Positions 3,245 to 10,564 of a stretch of DNA of 64,000 bases are shown piece by piece. The position numbers and the translations under genes are program-made. Where the stretch lies: IMG/VR virus record IMGVR_UViG_3300033141_001125, positions 671 through 64,670 of that record. One strand, written 5' to 3'. Below the pieces are notes generated by a model. The model made no database searches and had not been told where the DNA came from. It worked only from the letters and a program-made list of their open reading frames with translations. The first letter of the stretch is position 1. Each line of letters begins with the position of its first letter. This DNA comes from a virus (taxonomy: Duplodnaviria > Caudoviricetes).

Positions 3245-4006
3245 TCATTTCACTTCATATTCCTTGCCACGAAAAATACATCTGCGTGGATTATCACCTT
3301 TGCCAGTAAAGATCAAATTTTCAACGCTGAAATGCTGGCTGTCTGCATTGCCCCATTCACTCAGAACGCCAATCCCCTGCGTCCAGTTTGGATGTTTTTT
3401 ATAATGCGGTTCTAGCTTTTGCAAACAACCTATTTCCCATCCGCCAACCGCTAATCTTGGGCCTCTTGCTGTGACCGTGCCAACCTTATGATTGTGTCCT
3501 ATGATCACACTTTGCTGATACATCCGATCCGCAATTTCTTTTTCAACTGCGCGACCCGCATACTTGCTGTATCTAATCCCGTGTGTAACGATCAGGCGTC
3601 CGCCCACAAGCTCAACTTCATCACGCACAAATTCAAATTCAAGCTCTTTTAATTTGAGCAATTCTTCAAGTGTAAGTGCTTCTAGACTGTATATCACTGG
3701 ATGGTTCATCAAATAGCGCAACCATCTTACTTCGTGATTGCCGATAATAAATTTGAATTTAGCACCAGATGCAGCAGACTTTATTTCAGTATGCTTTTTA
3801 TATGCCTCGTCAATACTGCGTTGCAATAAAAGCCTCACGTCCGGTGCTTCTGTAAAAGTGCTGGCTTCTCTAAAGTCCTCGGAATCGCCATTGATGATAA
3901 CGTTATCAGGCTTGCAATCTTGGATAATCCTGCAAGCCAACTCTACTGCTCTATTATCCTGTTCAGGTGCGTGTAAATCTGCGACAATTGCCGTTGTTCG
4001 TGTCAT
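3245..4006 (-). CDS. calcineurin-like metallophosphoesterase
   Basis: DLH, GDxxD, GNHE, HG and GHNH motifs in canonical order. Confidence 0.88.
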   Translation of the reverse strand: MTRTTAIVADLHAPEQDNRAVELACRIIQDCKPDNVIINGDSEDFREASTFTEAPDVRLLLQRSIDEAYKKHTEIKSAASGAKFKFIIGNHEVRWLRYLMNHPVIYSLEALTLEELLKLKELEFEFVRDEVELVGGRLIVTHGIRYSKYAGRAVEKEIADRMYQQSVIIGHNHKVGTVTARGPRLAVGGWEIGCLQKLEPHYKKHPNWTQGIGVLSEWGNADSQHFSVENLIFTGKGDNPRRCIFRGKEYEVK

Positions 4007-4596: not shown

Positions 4597-4794
4597 CTAA
4601 ATCTCAATTGGTGTTCTGTCAATGAAACTTTGATACTCTCTTTCCAAGCTAGCAATATCCCATTGAGATTCAAGAATTGACTCAACACCATCTCTAACAA
4701 GCCGCCATTCCGCATTGTCGTATCTATGATATACAATTTTATCACTTGTTACAATAACAATAAAATATACAGGATTTATTTTGTCTATTCTCAT
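4597..4794 (-). CDS. hypothetical protein
   Basis: starts 3 nt after terL stop. Confidence 0.5.
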   Translation of the reverse strand: MRIDKINPVYFIVIVTSDKIVYHRYDNAEWRLVRDGVESILESQWDIASLEREYQSFIDRTPIEI

Positions 4795-4797
4795 TTC

Positions 4798-6207
4798 TTA
4801 GCCCCTCCAATCAGAAATACCAGGATCGCCCCAATGAGCATTGTTCCCGTGCTGTACCATCAGGCCATAACGTGCCGAGTCATAGAAGTCATCACCGCCA
4901 TTGCCATCCTCATCACAGTCAACTTTTCTAACATCTTCTGGCCGTCTTGGATCGTGTTCCATTGAAACTATAGATTCGCGCAATCTATAACAGCGTTCGT
5001 GAACAAACCAAGTGGGCTGTATACCAGACTCAATATCGCCAAGTCGGTTAAGAATTTCTGCCGCGCCTGAAATTCTATCCATATTAGCGCGCTTGAGTGA
5101 TCTTCCAAGTAATTCCTCATAATCGTCAGCCGGGCATTTTCCGTCACGATCTTTTGAGAAAACATCACCGCCAGCATAAATATCTTCTATACGCCAAAGC
5201 TCTATGCCATGGCGCTTGAGCATTTCGGTGTAAGCCCAAACATGCCTTTTTGGTATCCACTTTTGCCTAGCGTGTTCGTCAAAAGTATAAATGATTCCTT
5301 CGTGAGTCATACAATGTAAATGGATGACCGTATAGTGAGTGAACCCATAATCCATTGAGGCCCAAAAAGTCCAGGATGGATCAAGAACTAGATCGCCGCG
5401 CCATGTATGAACATCATCTTTCCAAGTTGTGAAGAATTGACCAGCCGCAATATCCCAATCGCCATAGCGATAAGCACGTAACCGCCACCCAGTGTTTTCC
5501 TCAAGTTTTTTTGTATAGCCATCATCAACATATGGGTTATCATCCACTGTCATAGGAATAAAACGAGTATCATCCTGAGTGTCGTTTTTATAGGGATCAA
5601 TAAATGACTTTTTATACCAGGCATGACCTATGCCACCAGGATTTGTAGTGCTATAAATTCTTGGTCGCCAGCCAGGTTTTGCACTTCGATTTGAATCACG
5701 TAGTGCCCTATGCTTGACCAACGATAGGCTTGTGTGTTCCTCGATGATGATAATGTCATACTCAAGTCCCAAATAATCATCAACATCGCCTTCGTTAATA
5801 AAACCACCAACAAGGCACTTGCTGCCATTTGGAAGGTACACACAGCCCTCAGAACGGTTATATCTGTGTGGCGTATGCTTCAAAACTGACTTGCGCAAAT
5901 TCTCAAATTGTTCACGCGCCTTTTTACCGACACGTCGTAGATACAAAATTGTTAGACCAGGAAAACGCCAGGCATCATCTAATAATGCTTGAGCAAAAAC
6001 CAGATGGGATTTGCCGCCACCACGCGCACCGCCAGCACCTATCTGTGTTGGCCCATCTTCATTATCAGCCCAACGACAAGCCGCATGAAATTCCCACGCC
6101 TTTGATGATGCAATGTATCTTTGTTTTATGAAGTTCTCAAATTGGCCCTTCGGAGAGCCACTTTTGATAGCTGCATCAAGAACATTACTTATTGTTGCCA
6201 TCGCCAT
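4798..6207 (-). CDS. terL: terminase large subunit
   Basis: Walker A GGARGGGKS, Walker B IIIIEE, TTNPGG coupling motif, RNase H-like nuclease (MDYG...DDFYDSARY). Confidence 0.93.
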   Translation of the reverse strand: MAMATISNVLDAAIKSGSPKGQFENFIKQRYIASSKAWEFHAACRWADNEDGPTQIGAGGARGGGKSHLVFAQALLDDAWRFPGLTILYLRRVGKKAREQFENLRKSVLKHTPHRYNRSEGCVYLPNGSKCLVGGFINEGDVDDYLGLEYDIIIIEEHTSLSLVKHRALRDSNRSAKPGWRPRIYSTTNPGGIGHAWYKKSFIDPYKNDTQDDTRFIPMTVDDNPYVDDGYTKKLEENTGWRLRAYRYGDWDIAAGQFFTTWKDDVHTWRGDLVLDPSWTFWASMDYGFTHYTVIHLHCMTHEGIIYTFDEHARQKWIPKRHVWAYTEMLKRHGIELWRIEDIYAGGDVFSKDRDGKCPADDYEELLGRSLKRANMDRISGAAEILNRLGDIESGIQPTWFVHERCYRLRESIVSMEHDPRRPEDVRKVDCDEDGNGGDDFYDSARYGLMVQHGNNAHWGDPGISDWRG

Positions 6208-6790
6208 ACGCCTTATCTATGAGTGATTGTAAATTACTATCAATCTCTATTGCCCCGCCGCCCGAACCCGTGATCTCGTTTCTAATTGGAGCATCAAGGC
6301 CCATTAGTTTGCGCCTTGCGCCGCTGCAATCCATCAGGCATTGCTTTAACCACTCAGCATCACCTTGCAAAAACTCAAGCTGAGTTGTTTGTCCAGTTGG
6401 CGCTGGCACCACTTCATCGGTTTGCGAATCAAGAATATATGAGAATACAGTTGTTATGCTTCTACGTTGCTTCTTTGGAATAGTTCTACCCAAGAATTTA
6501 GCTTTTTCTTCTGTCGCGCTTCCAAAGAACACCTCATAACAAAATGCTTGAATTGTATTTATTTCCCTTAACTCTTGAGTGCGCATCAAGTCAAAGTCAA
6601 CAAGGGAGGATCGTTTCCAATCCTCCCTTAGACTCTTAATGTCATTCTCGATGGTTGAGACTGACAGATCGTAAACGCGATTAGCACAAAGCTTTTTGCG
6701 TATTTCTTTTGCAGTCCATTCTGGATGTAATGACATGAGATTTGCAACAAAAGCCCTGTCCTGCTCGCGCTGATCGTTGGTTCTACGCAT
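6185..6790 (-). CDS. terS: terminase small subunit
   Basis: N-terminal HTH-like segment, C-terminal 'RRKLMGLDAP..EITGSGGGAI' typical of small terminases; overlaps terL start. Confidence 0.78.
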   Translation of the reverse strand: MRRTNDQREQDRAFVANLMSLHPEWTAKEIRKKLCANRVYDLSVSTIENDIKSLREDWKRSSLVDFDLMRTQELREINTIQAFCYEVFFGSATEEKAKFLGRTIPKKQRRSITTVFSYILDSQTDEVVPAPTGQTTQLEFLQGDAEWLKQCLMDCSGARRKLMGLDAPIRNEITGSGGGAIEIDSNLQSLIDKAYGDGNNK

Positions 6791-6794
6791 TTAG

Positions 6795-6914
6795 TTAACT
6801 CCGTTTAAACAAGCCGCCGATCCATTTACCAACAGCTTTAACAGTTCTCTTTACGCGTCCGCCAGCGCCACTTGCAGCACCCCCACTTCTACCCCTACTT
6901 CCAAATCCAGCCAT
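6795..6914 (-). CDS. 39-aa Gly/Arg/Lys-rich peptide MAGFGSRGRSGGAASGAGGRVKRTVKAVGKWIGGLFKRS (not in ORF track)
   Basis: strong AAGGAGGTGA RBS; fills the gap between radical SAM gene and terS. Confidence 0.75.
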   Translation of the reverse strand: MAGFGSRGRSGGAASGAGGRVKRTVKAVGKWIGGLFKRS

Positions 6915-6943
6915 GTTTCTCACCTCCTTTTTATTATCAAAAC

Positions 6944-8179
6944 TTACTCAAAAACCTCATCGTTCATTGCATCAAAATAATGTTCATCGCTTCCCCACGG
7001 AATAAATACCATATATGGCAATTCATATGTTGGATCAAGTGTAACACCAAGCTCGCCGTCATCATCTGTATAACCCGTCCAAGAAAAAACCCGCATGCTT
7101 GTAAGTCCCCATTTAATCAAGCCGCTGTCATATCCAACTGCAAGAATCTGTTTATAATTCAATTTACCAGCAGGGAGCTTGTACTTTTTGCGCAATGCAA
7201 AACTGCCTGTAAAAACATAATCTCTCATTCCTGTATAATTGCCATCAGGCAAGCGATACATCATAAAATCTAAGTAGTCTTGTACAGTAAACGGTGAATC
7301 AGGATTGTATTTTTCATCACGGCAGAAATTCACTAATCCTTGATTTGTTGGAAAACACTTATCATAGGTATCATAATACGGCTTGAAAAAATCACTATGT
7401 CCCTCAAATCCTGGCTGAAAAACTTCTAATCCATACTCTTGAGCTAAATTTATTGCACGTAGCACAGACATGCGATCTGCTCCACGTAACAAACTCTTCC
7501 CCCTTGACTTTGCGCGTGTAATAAGATCATCACCAAGTGTCTCAACTTCACGCACGGTCATTCTTTGTACCTGCTGGCTTGACAAGTGCATTTGATCAAT
7601 CCATACACCAGACACGCCAACTTGAGCAAATAATTCAATCAATGGTTCTGGATCGGGCAACCACTCAGAAACAAGCGGATTGATTGCCGCCACAACTTTA
7701 TGACCCATGTCAGTCAGTGTTTTAACTGTTGCCAATCGTTCTAACGGAGGTGGCGCGCCAGGAGAAATTTTCTTTGCTATAAATTCATCTAGCATTTCGA
7801 TGGTAATATACCATACTGCCGATTTCAAAAAGTCCAGCGCATCTAACATGCCTGGCCCGGTCTTTGTCTCAAAAGACAACGGGATACCCAAATCTGTCAT
7901 TGTTTTAATCAACGGCAATGTATATTGATAGGTTGACTTTGCAAATGGGTCACAGCGGTTTGATAACACAACCGGATAGCCCTCTTTTAGCAATTCAGCA
8001 GTTAAAGTTGTGCGATTCTGATAATCCGCTAATAGGTTCATGGCTTTGGAAAGTTCAATCTTTCCATTTCTTTGGTTGAGCTTTGCAAAACAATATACGC
8101 AGCCGTGCGAACAAGAACCATAAGAAAATTCAAGCGGCACTGGAAAATGCAAAAACTCTCCATAATAAGGTACAATCAT
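6944..8179 (-). CDS. radical SAM protein (spore-photoproduct-lyase-like family)
   Basis: CxxxCxxC motif CSHGCVYC near N-terminus, followed by SPL-like 'DPF', 'TK' and 'RL..V..L...G' segments. Confidence 0.88.
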   Translation of the reverse strand: MIVPYYGEFLHFPVPLEFSYGSCSHGCVYCFAKLNQRNGKIELSKAMNLLADYQNRTTLTAELLKEGYPVVLSNRCDPFAKSTYQYTLPLIKTMTDLGIPLSFETKTGPGMLDALDFLKSAVWYITIEMLDEFIAKKISPGAPPPLERLATVKTLTDMGHKVVAAINPLVSEWLPDPEPLIELFAQVGVSGVWIDQMHLSSQQVQRMTVREVETLGDDLITRAKSRGKSLLRGADRMSVLRAINLAQEYGLEVFQPGFEGHSDFFKPYYDTYDKCFPTNQGLVNFCRDEKYNPDSPFTVQDYLDFMMYRLPDGNYTGMRDYVFTGSFALRKKYKLPAGKLNYKQILAVGYDSGLIKWGLTSMRVFSWTGYTDDDGELGVTLDPTYELPYMVFIPWGSDEHYFDAMNDEVFE

Positions 8180-8937
8180 TATTTCACTCCATCAAAGGGT
8201 TCTGAATATAAATCCAACAAATACAAAAACGCTTTCAGGTCATCTTTAATTCCATTATGATTTTTGAATTCGCGCCATTTTTCATTCTGTTCACCAGTAA
8301 GAACAATTGGAACGACGTGCCTTCTTGCAAGAGATGTTGAGGGCTGTTTATCACCACCAGAAGAAACAGGAGGATTTGCTTCTTCCCGGTCGCCCTCAAC
8401 ATCACTTTCTTGCTGACCCTGAGCGCTATAAATATCTTGTTCTTGACTAGCAAAAGCCGCCAGTGGTGCATCAAACGTTTCTCGATATTCAATATCAAAT
8501 GAATTTGCTAATTCGCCCTCATTGAACATATCTAGCAATGCAACGCCTTGACGCTCGACCTCTTGAACCATCTCCGCGTCCCACTCTAGGCCAACTTCAC
8601 TTGAGCGATTATCAATAATTTCATAAAAACGTGCTTTTTCTCCATCTTCGCCAGCACCGTCAATATCAAGATCGTCAAATTGCAATACTACAAGTTCATC
8701 TGGGCTGGCGGCAACAATTTTCAATGGGATACCAGCATCTTTTGCCGCCGCCACAGTTTTATTTCCAGCAATGATCACACCGTCTTTATCCGCCACGACA
8801 GAACGCCTTGCTCCAACTTCTGCAATGGACTTTGTGAGCATATACTTTCCGCGATCAGTGCCTTTATTAGTATTAAAAGGATTTAAGGTTACATCGGACA
8901 TCCACAACTCCAATAGTAAATCGCAGGAACAAACCAC
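8179..8937 (-). CDS. ParB/Srx-like N-terminal domain protein (true start probably 8901)
   Basis: 'NPFNTNKG...KSIAEVGARRSVVADKDGVIIAGNKT...IIDNRSSE..EWD' is the phage ParB-like pattern; acidic tail. Confidence 0.8.
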   Translation of the reverse strand: MVCSCDLLLELWMSDVTLNPFNTNKGTDRGKYMLTKSIAEVGARRSVVADKDGVIIAGNKTVAAAKDAGIPLKIVAASPDELVVLQFDDLDIDGAGEDGEKARFYEIIDNRSSEVGLEWDAEMVQEVERQGVALLDMFNEGELANSFDIEYRETFDAPLAAFASQEQDIYSAQGQQESDVEGDREEANPPVSSGGDKQPSTSLARRHVVPIVLTGEQNEKWREFKNHNGIKDDLKAFLYLLDLYSEPFDGVK

Positions 8938-8993
8938 ACTATCAAATAGAGTGTTGTTCCTGCGACTACTAAAATTTTTCTGATCATATAAAC

Positions 8994-9022
8994 ATTATAT
9001 GGTCTTTTTGTTGTTATGTCAA
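8994..9022 (-). promoter_or_regulatory. sigma70-type promoter for ParB-radSAM-terminase operon
   Basis: perfect TTGACA-17 bp-TATAAT on the minus strand. Confidence 0.8.
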
Positions 9023-9026
9023 GAGG

Positions 9027-9362
9027 CTACTTTCTCTCCGTTCCTCTAAGAACAATTCTCTTAAAATATACACCCGTTCCCCAGCGGCATCGTTTCGCAC
9101 CCAGCCGTTGCATCTCAGTTGAAAAGCTCCTCTTGGTAACTGGATAATAACCCTTTTGATCACACCATTGAACATAGGCATTATATAACATCGCAAATGG
9201 AATCTTATAATTATCGTAAGTTATGCGACATCGCTCAACAAAAAATTCTCCGGCCTGAGTAAACGAAAAGCCAGAAATTAAGATATCGAAAATTCTTTGC
9301 TGATCAACTTCTGGATATTCAAACTTGATCATCTGAGCGATTATGTCCGCCATTCTGTGCAT
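9027..9362 (-). CDS. stand-alone winged-helix domain like the C-terminus of P4/D5 primase-helicases
   Basis: 'FFVERC...LYNAYVQWC...GYYP...FSTEMQRLG...G.YF.RI.L' parallels the C-terminus of ORF 21384-23111. Confidence 0.75.
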   Translation of the reverse strand: MHRMADIIAQMIKFEYPEVDQQRIFDILISGFSFTQAGEFFVERCRITYDNYKIPFAMLYNAYVQWCDQKGYYPVTKRSFSTEMQRLGAKRCRWGTGVYFKRIVLRGTERK

Positions 9363-9381
9363 TTTTTCACTCCTCTTATTT

Positions 9382-9494
9382 TAGTGTATGATTGGTGTAT
9401 TACTATCTCTCTTTTATTTATACATGAAAAATAAAATAAAATAAATAATATAGAGAAGGTAAAGTGGAGCGCATCATACACCAATAGTACACTA
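9382..9494. repeat. AT-rich element flanked by imperfect inverted repeats; candidate replication origin, copy 1
   Basis: TAGTGTATGATTGGTGTAT ... ATACACCAATAGTACACTA; 33-bp and 22-bp blocks identical to 33073-33157. Confidence 0.65.
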
Positions 9495-9724
9495 TGAAAA
9501 CACCGAAAAATCACTTTTTTGCAATATTTTATTCAAGATACACTGTAAAAGTAATTAAAATATTGCAAAAAGTATACAATATTTGAGAATAGTTCGCGTC
9601 TCTGCAATATCATATTCTTATGCAATAATATTGTATTTCATCAAGAAATGTTTATTTGAGCAGGTCAAGATTTAATGTATGACTTTTGATGCTCTGCAAT
9701 TTGAATGTAATGATAAACTTAACA

Positions 9725-10564
9725 TTATTTTGCGGTTGGTTCATAGTCAGATATAGCAAATAATAAGCCGCGCCAGTTAGAAAAAGTCGTTTGAAAATTC
9801 ATTACAAGCACAGCGTCTTTATTATCTAATGTCCATCGATTATACATACTGCTAACTGGCTCATCGCCACTAAAGGCATAAAATTTTCCATCGTATTCTC
9901 CAACAGCAAAGCGGGCATCTGGCATTTCATTCAATACATCGCGCCAGGTTAGTTCAAGTATACCGTAACTAAAAAACGGCACATCAAGCCAATCTTTTTC
10001 TATGTAACTAATTTTACTTACACGTTTTGACATCCAGTGAGTAGGATTATAATCAGTATAAATCCCAGAGATACACCCAATACGCCAGTCTTTTTTTGTA
10101 TGCTTGACCTGTGATTCTAGCCAACGGACATACTCTAAAATCTCATTTTGAATAAAGGCAAATTCTTCACGTAGTCCGCATGCGTATTCGCTATAATATC
10201 CATTGTTAGCACTATAATTTGCTGCGTCACCAGCAATCATAACAAGTACATCAAGCTTTGTCTCAATATCAAATTTGCCCTTATTGTCTGTCGGCTCCTC
10301 ATCAATTTCTTGCAACTGCGTTATAGTATGTTGCAATAGCTTTATAACTTCGCTGGTTTTATTATCCACGTGTAATCCTCCGTGCTTTCTTGGCCTGTTT
10401 GCGTTTGGCCTGCCGCTTCTTTTTAGCATCAATTTCAGGCTTTTTAGCTGAATTATGATCAACCCCACGTGCATCTCTAGCGGTTTTGCGCCGTCTCTGG
10501 CGGTTAATCTTGCCAGTAACTTGAAGAATTTTGTAAGCCGTTTTTGGCTCTTCGTCATTCGCAT
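9725..10564 (-). CDS. hypothetical protein (true start probably internal, near 10370)
   Basis: long ORF; the 5' part overlaps 10362-10607. Confidence 0.6.
   Translation of the reverse strand: MRMTKSQKRLTKFFKLLARLTARDGAKPLEMHVGLIIIQLKSLKLMLKRSGRPNANRPRKHGGLHVDNKTSEVIKLLQHTITQLQEIDEEPTDNKGKFDIETKLDVLVMIAGDAANYSANNGYYSEYACGLREEFAFIQNEILEYVRWLESQVKHTKKDWRIGCISGIYTDYNPTHWMSKRVSKISYIEKDWLDVPFFSYGILELTWRDVLNEMPDARFAVGEYDGKFYAFSGDEPVSSMYNRWTLDNKDAVLVMNFQTTFSNWRGLLFAISDYEPTAK

Follow-up and report, generated by a model that had tools for sequence, protein, structure and literature searches.

A ParB-like gene, a radical S-adenosylmethionine (SAM) gene and a gene for a small basic peptide, or for a protein that begins like one, form a real module that recurs in dozens of uncultured phages. 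The module is described here from the window, the 64,000-nt stretch of DNA analyzed, which covers bases 671–64670 of the 64,670-base virus record IMGVR_UViG_3300033141_001125 (G+C 41.8%). The first-pass annotation of this DNA had drawn an operon in which a perfect sigma-70 promoter is followed by a ParB-like gene, a radical SAM gene with the motif CSHGCVYC, a 39-amino-acid (aa) open reading frame (ORF), terS and the terminase gene. All of these parts were recovered on the minus strand and in this order; for terS the position was confirmed and the family was not.

The 39-aa ORF is a real gene. Its length of 39 codons is by itself within chance expectation, and it is the conserved position, the purifying selection on related small ORFs and the tight gene spacing that place it beyond chance. 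It was also predicted by the gene caller of the source database (P0174). Judged from its position and composition, the peptide belongs to a class of small, Gly-rich and strongly basic modules of the form MA-x-x-G-G, whose coding sequences follow at once on that of an SPL-like radical SAM enzyme specific to phages. The radical SAM gene is in turn coupled in translation to the ParB/Srx-like gene that heads the terminase operon.

Conservation of a basic Met-Ala tag at the end of the radical SAM gene

A profile scan of viral contigs detected 275 relatives of the radical SAM protein, and the 80 best were retained; metagenome contigs yielded another 44. A complete radical SAM ORF was present in 114 of these 124 loci (cited below by L numbers), which were reduced to 79 clusters at 90% identity with one representative each. 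Clustering of ORFs of ≥70 aa across 80 loci (the 79 representatives and the window) revealed as shared families the radical SAM protein itself, a ParB-like protein (58/80 loci) and terL (45/80 loci). The ParB-like ORF ended ≤30 nt from the radical SAM start in 34 of the 80 loci, with an overlap that was usually 1, 4 or 8 nt, and where ≥800 nt of upstream flank was available (63 loci), it lay ≤1100 nt upstream in 48. Downstream, terL was found in 40 of the 59 loci having ≥3 kb of flank, at a median distance of 718 nt. From these positions, the conserved core consists of the ParB-like gene, the radical SAM gene, a short interval and terS/terL. A prophage of Chitinophaga skermanii DSM 23857 has the same five-gene order as the window (ParB-like 217 aa, radical SAM 406 aa, terS-like 164 aa and terL 568 aa), with a 62-aa basic "MAVGG..." ORF beginning 1 nt past the radical SAM stop.

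The interval past the radical SAM stop was found to hold a recurring ORF that begins with Met-Ala, has an early Gly and a basic composition with hardly any acidic residues, and is usually preceded by a good Shine-Dalgarno sequence. This tag was scored as an ATG or GTG start located −45 to +60 nt from the stop, with "MA" followed by Gly within the next five residues, and with ≥3 Gly and a net charge of ≥+2 in the first 30 residues. The window peptide falls under this rule, as it starts 29 nt past the radical SAM stop with the N-terminus MAG and contains 11 Gly, 5 Arg and 4 Lys with a net charge of +9; it contains no Asp or Glu (pI, isoelectric point, 12.0), as had been noted at first sight. Among the 77 evaluable representatives (the other two had <150 nt downstream), a tag ORF followed the radical SAM stop in 26, compared with 8 of 450 control stops, i.e., those of other ORFs of ≥150 aa in the same loci (odds ratio 28, Fisher p 2.4e-17). 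Five of the eight control positives were further genes carrying the tag N-terminus of their own locus (L003 twice, L007, L096, and L122). A looser rule (net charge ≥+1) gave 30 of 77, of which 19 were free peptides (≤80 aa) and 11 were longer proteins, and the 47 loci failing it had another small ORF (14), ran straight into a larger untagged gene (29) or had nothing there (4). Tag-like ORFs missed by the rule were added by eye (L006, L031, L056, L084, and L104), as were three loci whose tagged gene does not directly follow the radical SAM gene (L007, L086, and L092). A conserved short Gly/Arg-rich ORF downstream of homologous radical SAM genes was the test that the first-pass annotation had set beforehand; such an ORF is present in at least 30 of the 77 dereplicated lineages, and with this positive neighborhood result a functional link between the peptide and the ParB–radical SAM module is plausible. 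The 3′ end of the radical SAM gene carries a conserved, selected, basic N-terminal module in about 40–50% of lineages.

Selection on the small ORFs was evaluated from the proportions of nonsynonymous (pN) and synonymous (pS) changes. These were 0.148 and 0.423 for L053 against L057, 0.031 and 0.138 for L053 against L059, 0.159 and 0.613 for L027 against L114, and 0.264 and 0.779 for L066 against L055, so that pN/pS was 0.22–0.35 in four comparisons; the adjoining radical SAM genes were more constrained. A fifth pair, L031 and L117, gave 0.068 and 0.088, values based on 7 changes only. In one provirus (L003), the same eight N-terminal residues are encoded four times with differing codons, including both serine codon families, and the codon differences among tag copies therefore indicate that selection acts at the protein level rather than on an element of the DNA or RNA. 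These data bear on whether the ORF is a translated leader, efficiently initiated so as to load ribosomes for the weakly initiated terS-like gene and encoding a functionless peptide. The arrangement would suit a leader: the Shine-Dalgarno sequence is a perfect 10-nt match (AAGGAGGTGA, spacing 5 nt), in line with the very strong ribosome-binding site noted initially, only 4 nt separate the peptide stop from the terS-like ATG, and the GGAG of the terS-like gene is located within the peptide ORF. However, the purifying selection on related small ORFs, the retention of composition and motifs across distant phages, and the fusion of the same module to real enzymes make a leader improbable. Fusion of the peptide to the terS-like protein by read-through or frameshifting was also considered and rejected, as the peptide frame has a second stop (TAG) three codons past its TAA and the terS-like ATG is immediately preceded by an in-frame TAA.

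A quick maximum-likelihood tree was built from 79 radical SAM rows (78 representatives and the window; L070 was dropped as a 127-aa fragment). The tag label was clustered on this tree: it required 15 changes, whereas shuffled labels required 26.5 on average, and none of 500 shuffles was as low. In the main clade, the tag is present on deep branches, with 39 tagged and 33 untagged among 72 rows; one early 7-row clade is tagged throughout, while two 8-row clades and the 7-row outgroup are untagged throughout. The starred branches of the tree require ≥7 tag changes, and some of the untagged rows have very short downstream flanks. Since relatedness alone yields clustering, the tree is taken to reflect an old and repeatedly lost linkage of the tag rather than co-evolution.

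Two other small ORFs were observed at the same position. In L018 (1532-1606) and L030 (1203-1277), a 24-aa acidic ORF ending "..YSGGSSFAEDVGG.." lies directly past the radical SAM stop in place of the basic tag; it is conserved between two different radical SAM clusters and has an S-G-G-x-aromatic core in common with the tags. One tag-less clade has a conserved 76–78-aa ORF ("..QALGAF..") overlapping the radical SAM stop (L038 1391-1627, L041 4231-4461, and L044 1840-2076).

The tag occurs either as a free peptide of 30–67 aa or as the N-terminus of a larger protein (100–600 aa; up to 607 aa), and Met1-Ala2 was invariant in 21 of 21 aligned tags. W-type tags continue with GG-x-W, then G-x-(R)-F, and then often G-E-S-R-Q plus a basic helix. 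The predicted structure of a 42-aa W-type tag, modeled from a 10-sequence alignment, had a predicted local distance difference test (pLDDT) value of 87 and showed a β-hairpin (7-10/16-19), a helix (25-41) and a flexible six-residue arm; a fold search of the PDB with this model returned nothing at E ≤ 0.001. The window peptide belongs to a Gly/Arg/Lys-rich subclass without the W-type motif, together with L004, L005, L010, L097, and L100. The L083 tag joins a W-type start to a C-terminal end like that of the window peptide, "AVG..GGL(F/M).R", and the end of the L097 tag is similar. A search of 5.8 billion proteins with the window peptide (42-aa GTG form) found no relative sharing 5-residue words and matched only its own 39-aa record, and an Atlas search gave no usable match. 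The cationic C-terminal half of the peptide contains Trp, Ile, Leu and Phe, which would suit a membrane-active amphipathic peptide related to lysis or antimicrobial activity. Such a function is very hard to credit, as the gene is located in a terminase operon and not in a lysis cassette, the relatives are mostly Gly/Arg/Lys-rich with little hydrophobic content, and the peptide has no signal or transmembrane segment. As a separate observation, L060 (6551-6679) and its cluster (L053, L057, L059, and L061) have a 38–42-aa tag peptide followed by terL, with no terS-sized gene between.

Several loci contain arrays of genes whose first ~12 residues are nearly identical and whose bodies are unrelated, namely, four genes each in L001 and L096, three each in L002 and L003, and two in L089. 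The arrays flank the radical SAM gene on both sides in L001, L003, and L096; in L002 and L089, every tagged gene is downstream. One tagged protein of L003 is an ADP-ribosyltransferase (PF03496, E = 1.4e-14), its PHROG rows including the Alt-like ADP-ribosyltransferase. The tagged proteins directly after the radical SAM gene in L019 and L022 carry ParB_N (E = 3e-11 and 2.4e-4, respectively), and these two loci have no member of the otherwise common ParB-like family. A domain of the tagged protein of L086 recurs in very long phage proteins (phrog_5143, E = 2.6e-82). The L003 provirus has yet another tagged gene, its fourth, which encodes a 180-aa Arg-rich protein and is located ~11 kb away, just ahead of a tail-sheath-like gene. 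In a separate comparison, the radical SAM genes of L012 and L099 are >90% identical; L099 has a 101-aa tagged gene after the radical SAM gene, and L012 has at this place (3332-3436) the first five tag residues only, joined to unrelated sequence, with a tagged gene upstream of the radical SAM gene. This difference suggests, at the level of sequence, an exchange of cassettes by recombination at the common tag.

Another possibility is that the peptide has no direct link to the radical SAM enzyme and is an independent small basic head or packaging protein (e.g., DNA-neutralizing or ejected) that merely occupies the same accessory slot. The Alt-like ADP-ribosyltransferase, ParB_N and the long-protein domain are cargoes of kinds described as head-packaged and injected (PMC5512222, PMC3012670). 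The PHROG profiles for the long-protein domain run to 2204 and 3427 positions, the distant fourth gene of L003 stands within a structural module, and many radical SAM lineages have no tag. Set against this are the concentration of tags at the radical SAM stop, with five of the eight control positives being tag paralogs beside the radical SAM gene, an adjacency kept across radical SAM lineages only 30–40% identical, and the tag-ParB_N fusions, which point to a common function. An unlinked protein is considered unlikely.

The specificity of the tag was evaluated by scans of viral-contig DNA, in which "MAxxGGHWK" gave 52 loci and "GGAG...MAxxGGxW" gave ≥86 stretches, 80 of which were analyzed. 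By our own estimate, ~7 to 14 matches would be expected by chance. The scans mostly recovered other families, i.e., major head proteins of ~355 aa (phrog_212), tail sheath proteins of ~450 aa recognized by their Pfam sheath domains, a protein with an fn3 domain, and further proteins of ~150, 79 and 240 aa; a "MADEGGVW" family of the head module was among the virion-protein families beginning in this way. A search of whole records for the radical SAM gene was negative in 10 of 10 records of motif-only families (six of them ≥96% complete) and positive in 5 of 5 controls; nine of the ten records came from virion-protein families and the tenth (L294) from a separate "MANEGGRW" family. The N-termini of those 128 loci and of the window, 18,124 in all and thus already selected for the motif, were then searched with a profile built from 30 W-type tags. 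The profile matched 11 rows from 5 loci at E < 1e-6, all five with a radical SAM gene; the independence of this result is weak, as three of the five loci were re-fetched copies of profile loci and L174 was itself in the profile. Head-protein rows gave E values of 1.6e-4 to 0.03, and the 240-aa family 0.028. The tag as a general capsid signal was set aside, since the tested records of virion families with MAxxGGxW were free of the radical SAM gene and these families score weakly with the profile, and they were used neither for nor against any reading. The likeness of the tag to capsid and sheath N-termini (e.g., L127 and L272) may be a coincidence, in view of the matches expected by chance and the large size of these families, or a general trait of highly expressed virion genes. 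The full tag, unlike the eight-residue motif, was seen only adjoining the radical SAM gene. In the window, a "MAIAIGGW" at 564-884 was rejected as a tag, being internal to a 525-aa ORF.

The operon and its radical SAM and ParB-like proteins

The features of the operon are listed in Table 1. The promoter, which bears out the perfect sigma-70 site claimed initially, was the sole full match among 19 promoter-like sites in 4600-9800, a number not above that in shuffled sequence (14.8 ± 4.6). The inverted repeat downstream of it may be an operator or a hairpin in the 5′ untranslated region that controls the operon. The ParB-like ORF could extend upstream to a GTG at 8937, giving a 252-aa form; the start at ATG 8901 is favored because of where the inverted repeat sits. 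The genes are closely packed, with the ParB-like stop and the radical SAM ATG having one base in common (TAATG) and the terS-like gene and terL overlapping by 23 nt. The terS-like protein showed only a weak N-terminal helix-turn-helix (HTH) match, which did not confirm its family assignment. A PHROG scan of the window, which covered 53 of its 71 ORFs of ≥90 aa, matched a primase, helicases, DNA methyltransferases, an FtsK/SpoIIIE-like protein, a partition protein, a tape measure protein and a major head protein, and this gene content identifies the window as part of a tailed-phage genome.

Table 1. Features of the operon in the window (positions are those of the window).
Feature	Position	Strand	Evidence
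Sigma-70-type promoter, TTGACA-17-TATAAT	9022..8994	minus	12/12 matches
Perfect 12-nt inverted repeat, 21-nt spacer, between promoter and ParB-like start	8921..8965	minus	
ParB/Srx-like gene, 240 aa from ATG	8179..8901	minus	phrog_620, phrog_498
Phage-specific radical SAM gene, 411 aa, CX3CX2C at C23/C27/C30	6944..8179	minus	
Shine-Dalgarno sequence AAGGAGGTGA, 5 nt ahead of the peptide ATG	6920..6929	minus	
Gene for the 39-aa Gly-rich, acid-free basic peptide, "MA..G" tag class	6795..6914	minus	
terS-like gene, 201 aa, so called by position	6185..6790	minus	HTH_32, E = 0.0027, below cut-off
Large terminase subunit gene, terL	4798..6207	minus	Terminase_3 (PF04466), E = 1.6e-11; phrog_979, E = 3.2e-22

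A search of 1.84 billion cluster representatives with the radical SAM protein gave 877 proteins with E ≤ 0.001; 188, counted as clusters at 50% identity, reached E ≤ 1e-30, and the nearest homologs showed 67% and 62% identity. Its Atlas neighbors were mostly viral clusters; the automatic name "SPL family radical SAM protein" was attached to one of them and "DNA repair photolyase" to another. Pfam gave only Radical_SAM (PF04055) at 24.9 bits, below the 29.5 cut-off, and the PHROG match was phrog_13321. The best NCBIfam rows, Rv2578c (E = 1.2e-12) and PA0069 (E = 3.4e-9), covered the radical SAM core; the C-terminal half of ~200 aa is extra to the SPL-like families and had no match. Based on these sequence comparisons, the protein is assigned to a phage-specific family nearest to the SPL-type "DNA repair photolyase" enzymes. 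Alignment of 16 homologs showed C23, C27, and C30 of the CSHGCVYC motif to be the only invariant cysteines, and no SPASM, twitch or RRE/PqqD-type domain or auxiliary-cluster cysteines were found by Pfam or in this alignment.

No match to the GenBank phage collection was obtained by tblastn of the radical SAM protein or by blastn of positions 4700-9400. A sequence search of the PDB gave a single chance-level row, and a fold search of BFVD gave no close viral relative (best query-normalized TM-score, TMq, 0.47). The AlphaFold model of the protein (pLDDT 90.6) matched 52 PDB chains at E ≤ 0.001, and the matches listed were almost all radical SAM enzymes. With its CX3CX2C motif and partial TIM-barrel core, the protein qualifies as a member of the radical SAM superfamily. 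A predicted complex of the enzyme, with SAM and a 4Fe-4S cluster, and the peptide scored 0.02 against a mark of 0.32, a value read neither for nor against the pairing. In cells, with one genome per prokaryotic species, about four full-length relatives were present among the best 80 loci (C. skermanii, a Chitinophagaceae metagenome-assembled genome (MAG), Epilithonimonas xixisoli and a Saccharibacteria MAG), and the remaining cellular loci align only to the N-terminal 170–200 residues. Two further relatives, P0052 (759 aa) and P0089 (708 aa), have an insertion of ~340–370 aa ahead of the matched region, with a LAGLIDADG match in P0089; from these sequences, both probably carry inteins.

The ParB-like protein of the window had no match in Pfam and matched PHROG profiles, namely, phrog_620 (E = 8.5e-13), phrog_498 (E = 1.6e-10), which carries the PHROGs label DNA methyltransferase (ParB-methyltransferase family), and a further ParB family (E = 1.8e-7). 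The L003 member of the family matched PF02195 at 23.3 bits, under the cut-off of 26.3. The GxxR motif reads GNKT in the window, where a column that is Arg in 45 of 68 members is Thr, with a Lys one position earlier. The larger members of the cluster included a ParB-N6_N4_Mtase fusion in L004, located immediately upstream of the locus's own ParB–radical SAM pair, an FtsK_SpoIIIE fusion in L081, and a protein with a weak phosphoribosyltransferase match in L096. The members from L027 and L041 matched the methylase only and probably joined the cluster via methylase fusions.

Two structures next to these genes were also observed. A hairpin at 6601-6630 on the minus strand lies within the terS-like coding region, ~160 nt from the gene start; with perfect arms of 10 nt and up to 13 pairs, it was flagged as terminator-like despite its intragenic position, and it could be a pac-type or regulatory structure. 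Immediately upstream of the promoter, a 111-aa ORF (9027-9362, minus strand) aligns with primase/D5-type proteins over their C-terminal portion only (Pox_D5 at E = 4.6e-9, along with primase rows of PHROG) and, judged by these matches, represents a small free-standing fragment or domain.

Possible roles of the peptide and its significance

We tentatively prefer, with rather less than even confidence, the view that an acidic pair, the ParB-like and radical SAM proteins, acts on phage DNA at packaging and that the peptide serves this pair as a basic partner directed to DNA or virion. The two acidic proteins would pair up and act on the DNA around packaging, by a modification or a repair-type radical reaction, and the basic tag would be the arm of the system directed to nucleic acid or virion. 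As a free peptide, it would bridge the pair to DNA and probably remain with the DNA; as an N-terminal tag, it would take other enzymes (ADP-ribosyltransferase and ParB_N proteins) to the same place. This role is favored because the ParB domain is of the type that phages couple to DNA methyltransferases, because the nearest families of the radical SAM enzyme are SPL-type, because the tag-ParB_N fusion resembles a subunit fusion, and because many lineages run the core without the tag. The occurrence of acidic enzymes beside a very basic peptide is in agreement with it, the pI values in the window being 4.3 for the ParB-like protein (252-aa GTG form) and 5.0 for the radical SAM protein (family medians, 4.9 and 6.4, respectively).

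Several observations weigh against a DNA- or virion-directed partner. The radical SAM protein scored far under the cut-offs of the SPL-type families (47.6 vs. 430, 36.2 vs. 360, and 34.9 vs. 700 bits). Its structural matches are generic, the top one being the protein-acting pyruvate formate-lyase (PFL)-activating enzyme (E = 1e-6), followed by SkfB, viperin and SuiB, and SPL structures appeared only at rank 23–33 (TMq 0.39–0.41). An acidic ParB-like protein with its hallmark Arg replaced is an odd DNA binder, and as 33 of the 72 main-clade rows are untagged, the tag is dispensable for the core function. In the search with the W-type profile, the window peptide was absent from the best 70 rows, which extended to E = 0.17, and hence its membership of the class rests on position, composition and the weak C-terminal likeness to L083 and L097. 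Finally, DNA as the substrate of the enzyme, binding of the tag to DNA, and contact of the tag with the ParB-like/radical SAM pair are steps that we infer.

Two known groups are the closest to the proposed DNA-acting pair. Phage modules of ParB and DNA methyltransferase upstream of terminase likewise combine a ParB/Srx-type N-domain with a DNA-acting enzyme in the same genomic slot; they differ in that the partner here is a radical SAM enzyme, encoded by a separate overlapping gene, and that the ParB-like protein of the window is without the family Arg. The polyvalent-protein paper (PMC5512222) describes a nicking activity of ParB-methylases as well as head-packaged ParB-type and ADP-ribosyltransferase proteins and ParB-methylases; the term "radical SAM" does not occur in it. 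SplB and the SPL-like "DNA repair photolyase" group (Rv2578c and PA0069) provide the nearest curated sequence families, from which the present enzyme differs in its low scores, its location in a late phage operon, its coupling to a ParB-like gene and its extra C-terminal half.

Radical SAM enzymes often modify a small peptide encoded adjacently, as in YydG/YydF, and the tag could be the substrate of the enzyme, with the N-terminal arm (Ala2, Gly-Gly, and aromatic) of free peptides and tagged proteins being modified. This would amount to a post-translational marking of a set of phage proteins by a logic like that of ribosomally synthesized and post-translationally modified peptides (RiPPs), perhaps with a helper of the ParB/Srx-like type that uses nucleoside triphosphates. 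We regard this as possible but doubtful. In its favor, the tag gene abuts the radical SAM stop (−34 to +50 nt) in 26–30 of 77 lineages, tagged genes flank the radical SAM gene on both sides in L001, L003, L096, and L012, and in L086 and L092 a single tagged gene stands just upstream. Up to five genes per genome have near-identical, leader-like first 12 residues with different bodies, Met1-Ala2 is invariant, and residues 1-6 were modeled as a flexible arm. All 11 strong profile matches came from five loci holding the radical SAM gene, and the best PDB matches include enzymes acting on peptide loops (the PFL-activating enzyme with its peptide substrate, SkfB, and SuiB). On the other hand, the enzyme is without SPASM, twitch or RRE/PqqD domain and auxiliary-cluster cysteines, the operon holds no protease or exporter gene (ParB-like, radical SAM, peptide, terS-like and terL genes only), and about half of the radical SAM lineages are tag-less, including two 8-row clades and the 7-row outgroup. 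In addition, the families nearest in sequence are DNA-type, and a tag fused to a ParB_N partner resembles a subunit more than a substrate.

The module resembles RiPP pairs of radical SAM enzyme and precursor (SkfB and SuiB/SuiA) in having a short peptide gene immediately after the radical SAM gene, several peptides or proteins per genome with a conserved end and a variable rest, and SkfB and SuiB among its structural matches. Unlike in those pairs, the domains, auxiliary cysteines, protease and exporter named above are missing, conservation is confined to the very N-terminus of proteins that can reach 607 aa, and the genes stand in a packaging operon of a phage, beside a ParB-like partner. The PFL-activating enzyme is the best PDB match of the radical SAM model (3c8f, E = 1e-6, target-normalized TM-score, TMt, 0.64) and has as its target a glycine within a loop of a protein; the tags here carry an invariant Gly-rich arm. 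However, the identity is 13–14%, the match covers the generic radical SAM core only, TMt is inflated by the small target, and the operon here has no glycyl-radical enzyme. The RiPP-like label of the first-pass annotation was thus not upheld, given the missing SPASM/PqqD-type match, protease and exporter, the tags heading proteins of 100–600 aa and the tag-less half of the lineages, and the module is not a canonical RiPP system. Between the two roles initially offered for the peptide, substrate or DNA-binding partner, the latter fits the evidence somewhat better.

Alongside the preferred role as a DNA- or virion-directed partner, two bolder ideas may be mentioned. The first, which is a long shot, is that radical chemistry on the invariant N-terminal arm joins the tagged proteins covalently to phage DNA or marks them for co-packaging. 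If so, basic peptides and effector enzymes would ride with the DNA into the capsid and the next host, and phages would thereby deliver proteins by a principle that is new. A conceptual parallel to the tags themselves is the T4 capsid targeting sequence, described in PMC3012670 as common to diverse internal proteins. Like the tags, it is a short conserved N-terminus on diverse proteins, one of them an Alt-like ADP-ribosyltransferase; unlike it, the tags sit beside a radical SAM gene and are known from genes alone. To our knowledge, T4 has no radical SAM enzyme in such a role. The second, a related and bold idea, is that the module is a phage counterpart of the spore pair of small acid-soluble protein and SPL, combining a DNA-coating peptide with an SPL-like repair enzyme for densely packed DNA.

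Full-text literature searches, whose reach excludes supplements, found no published description of the ParB-like/radical SAM/tag module. The radical SAM family occurs nearly exclusively in uncultured phages, and none of its members has been characterized. Solving the function of the module would add either a new radical SAM reaction, on DNA or proteins, or a new route by which phages address proteins to DNA or capsid, and the prophage of C. skermanii DSM 23857, with its cultured host, puts this question within experimental reach.

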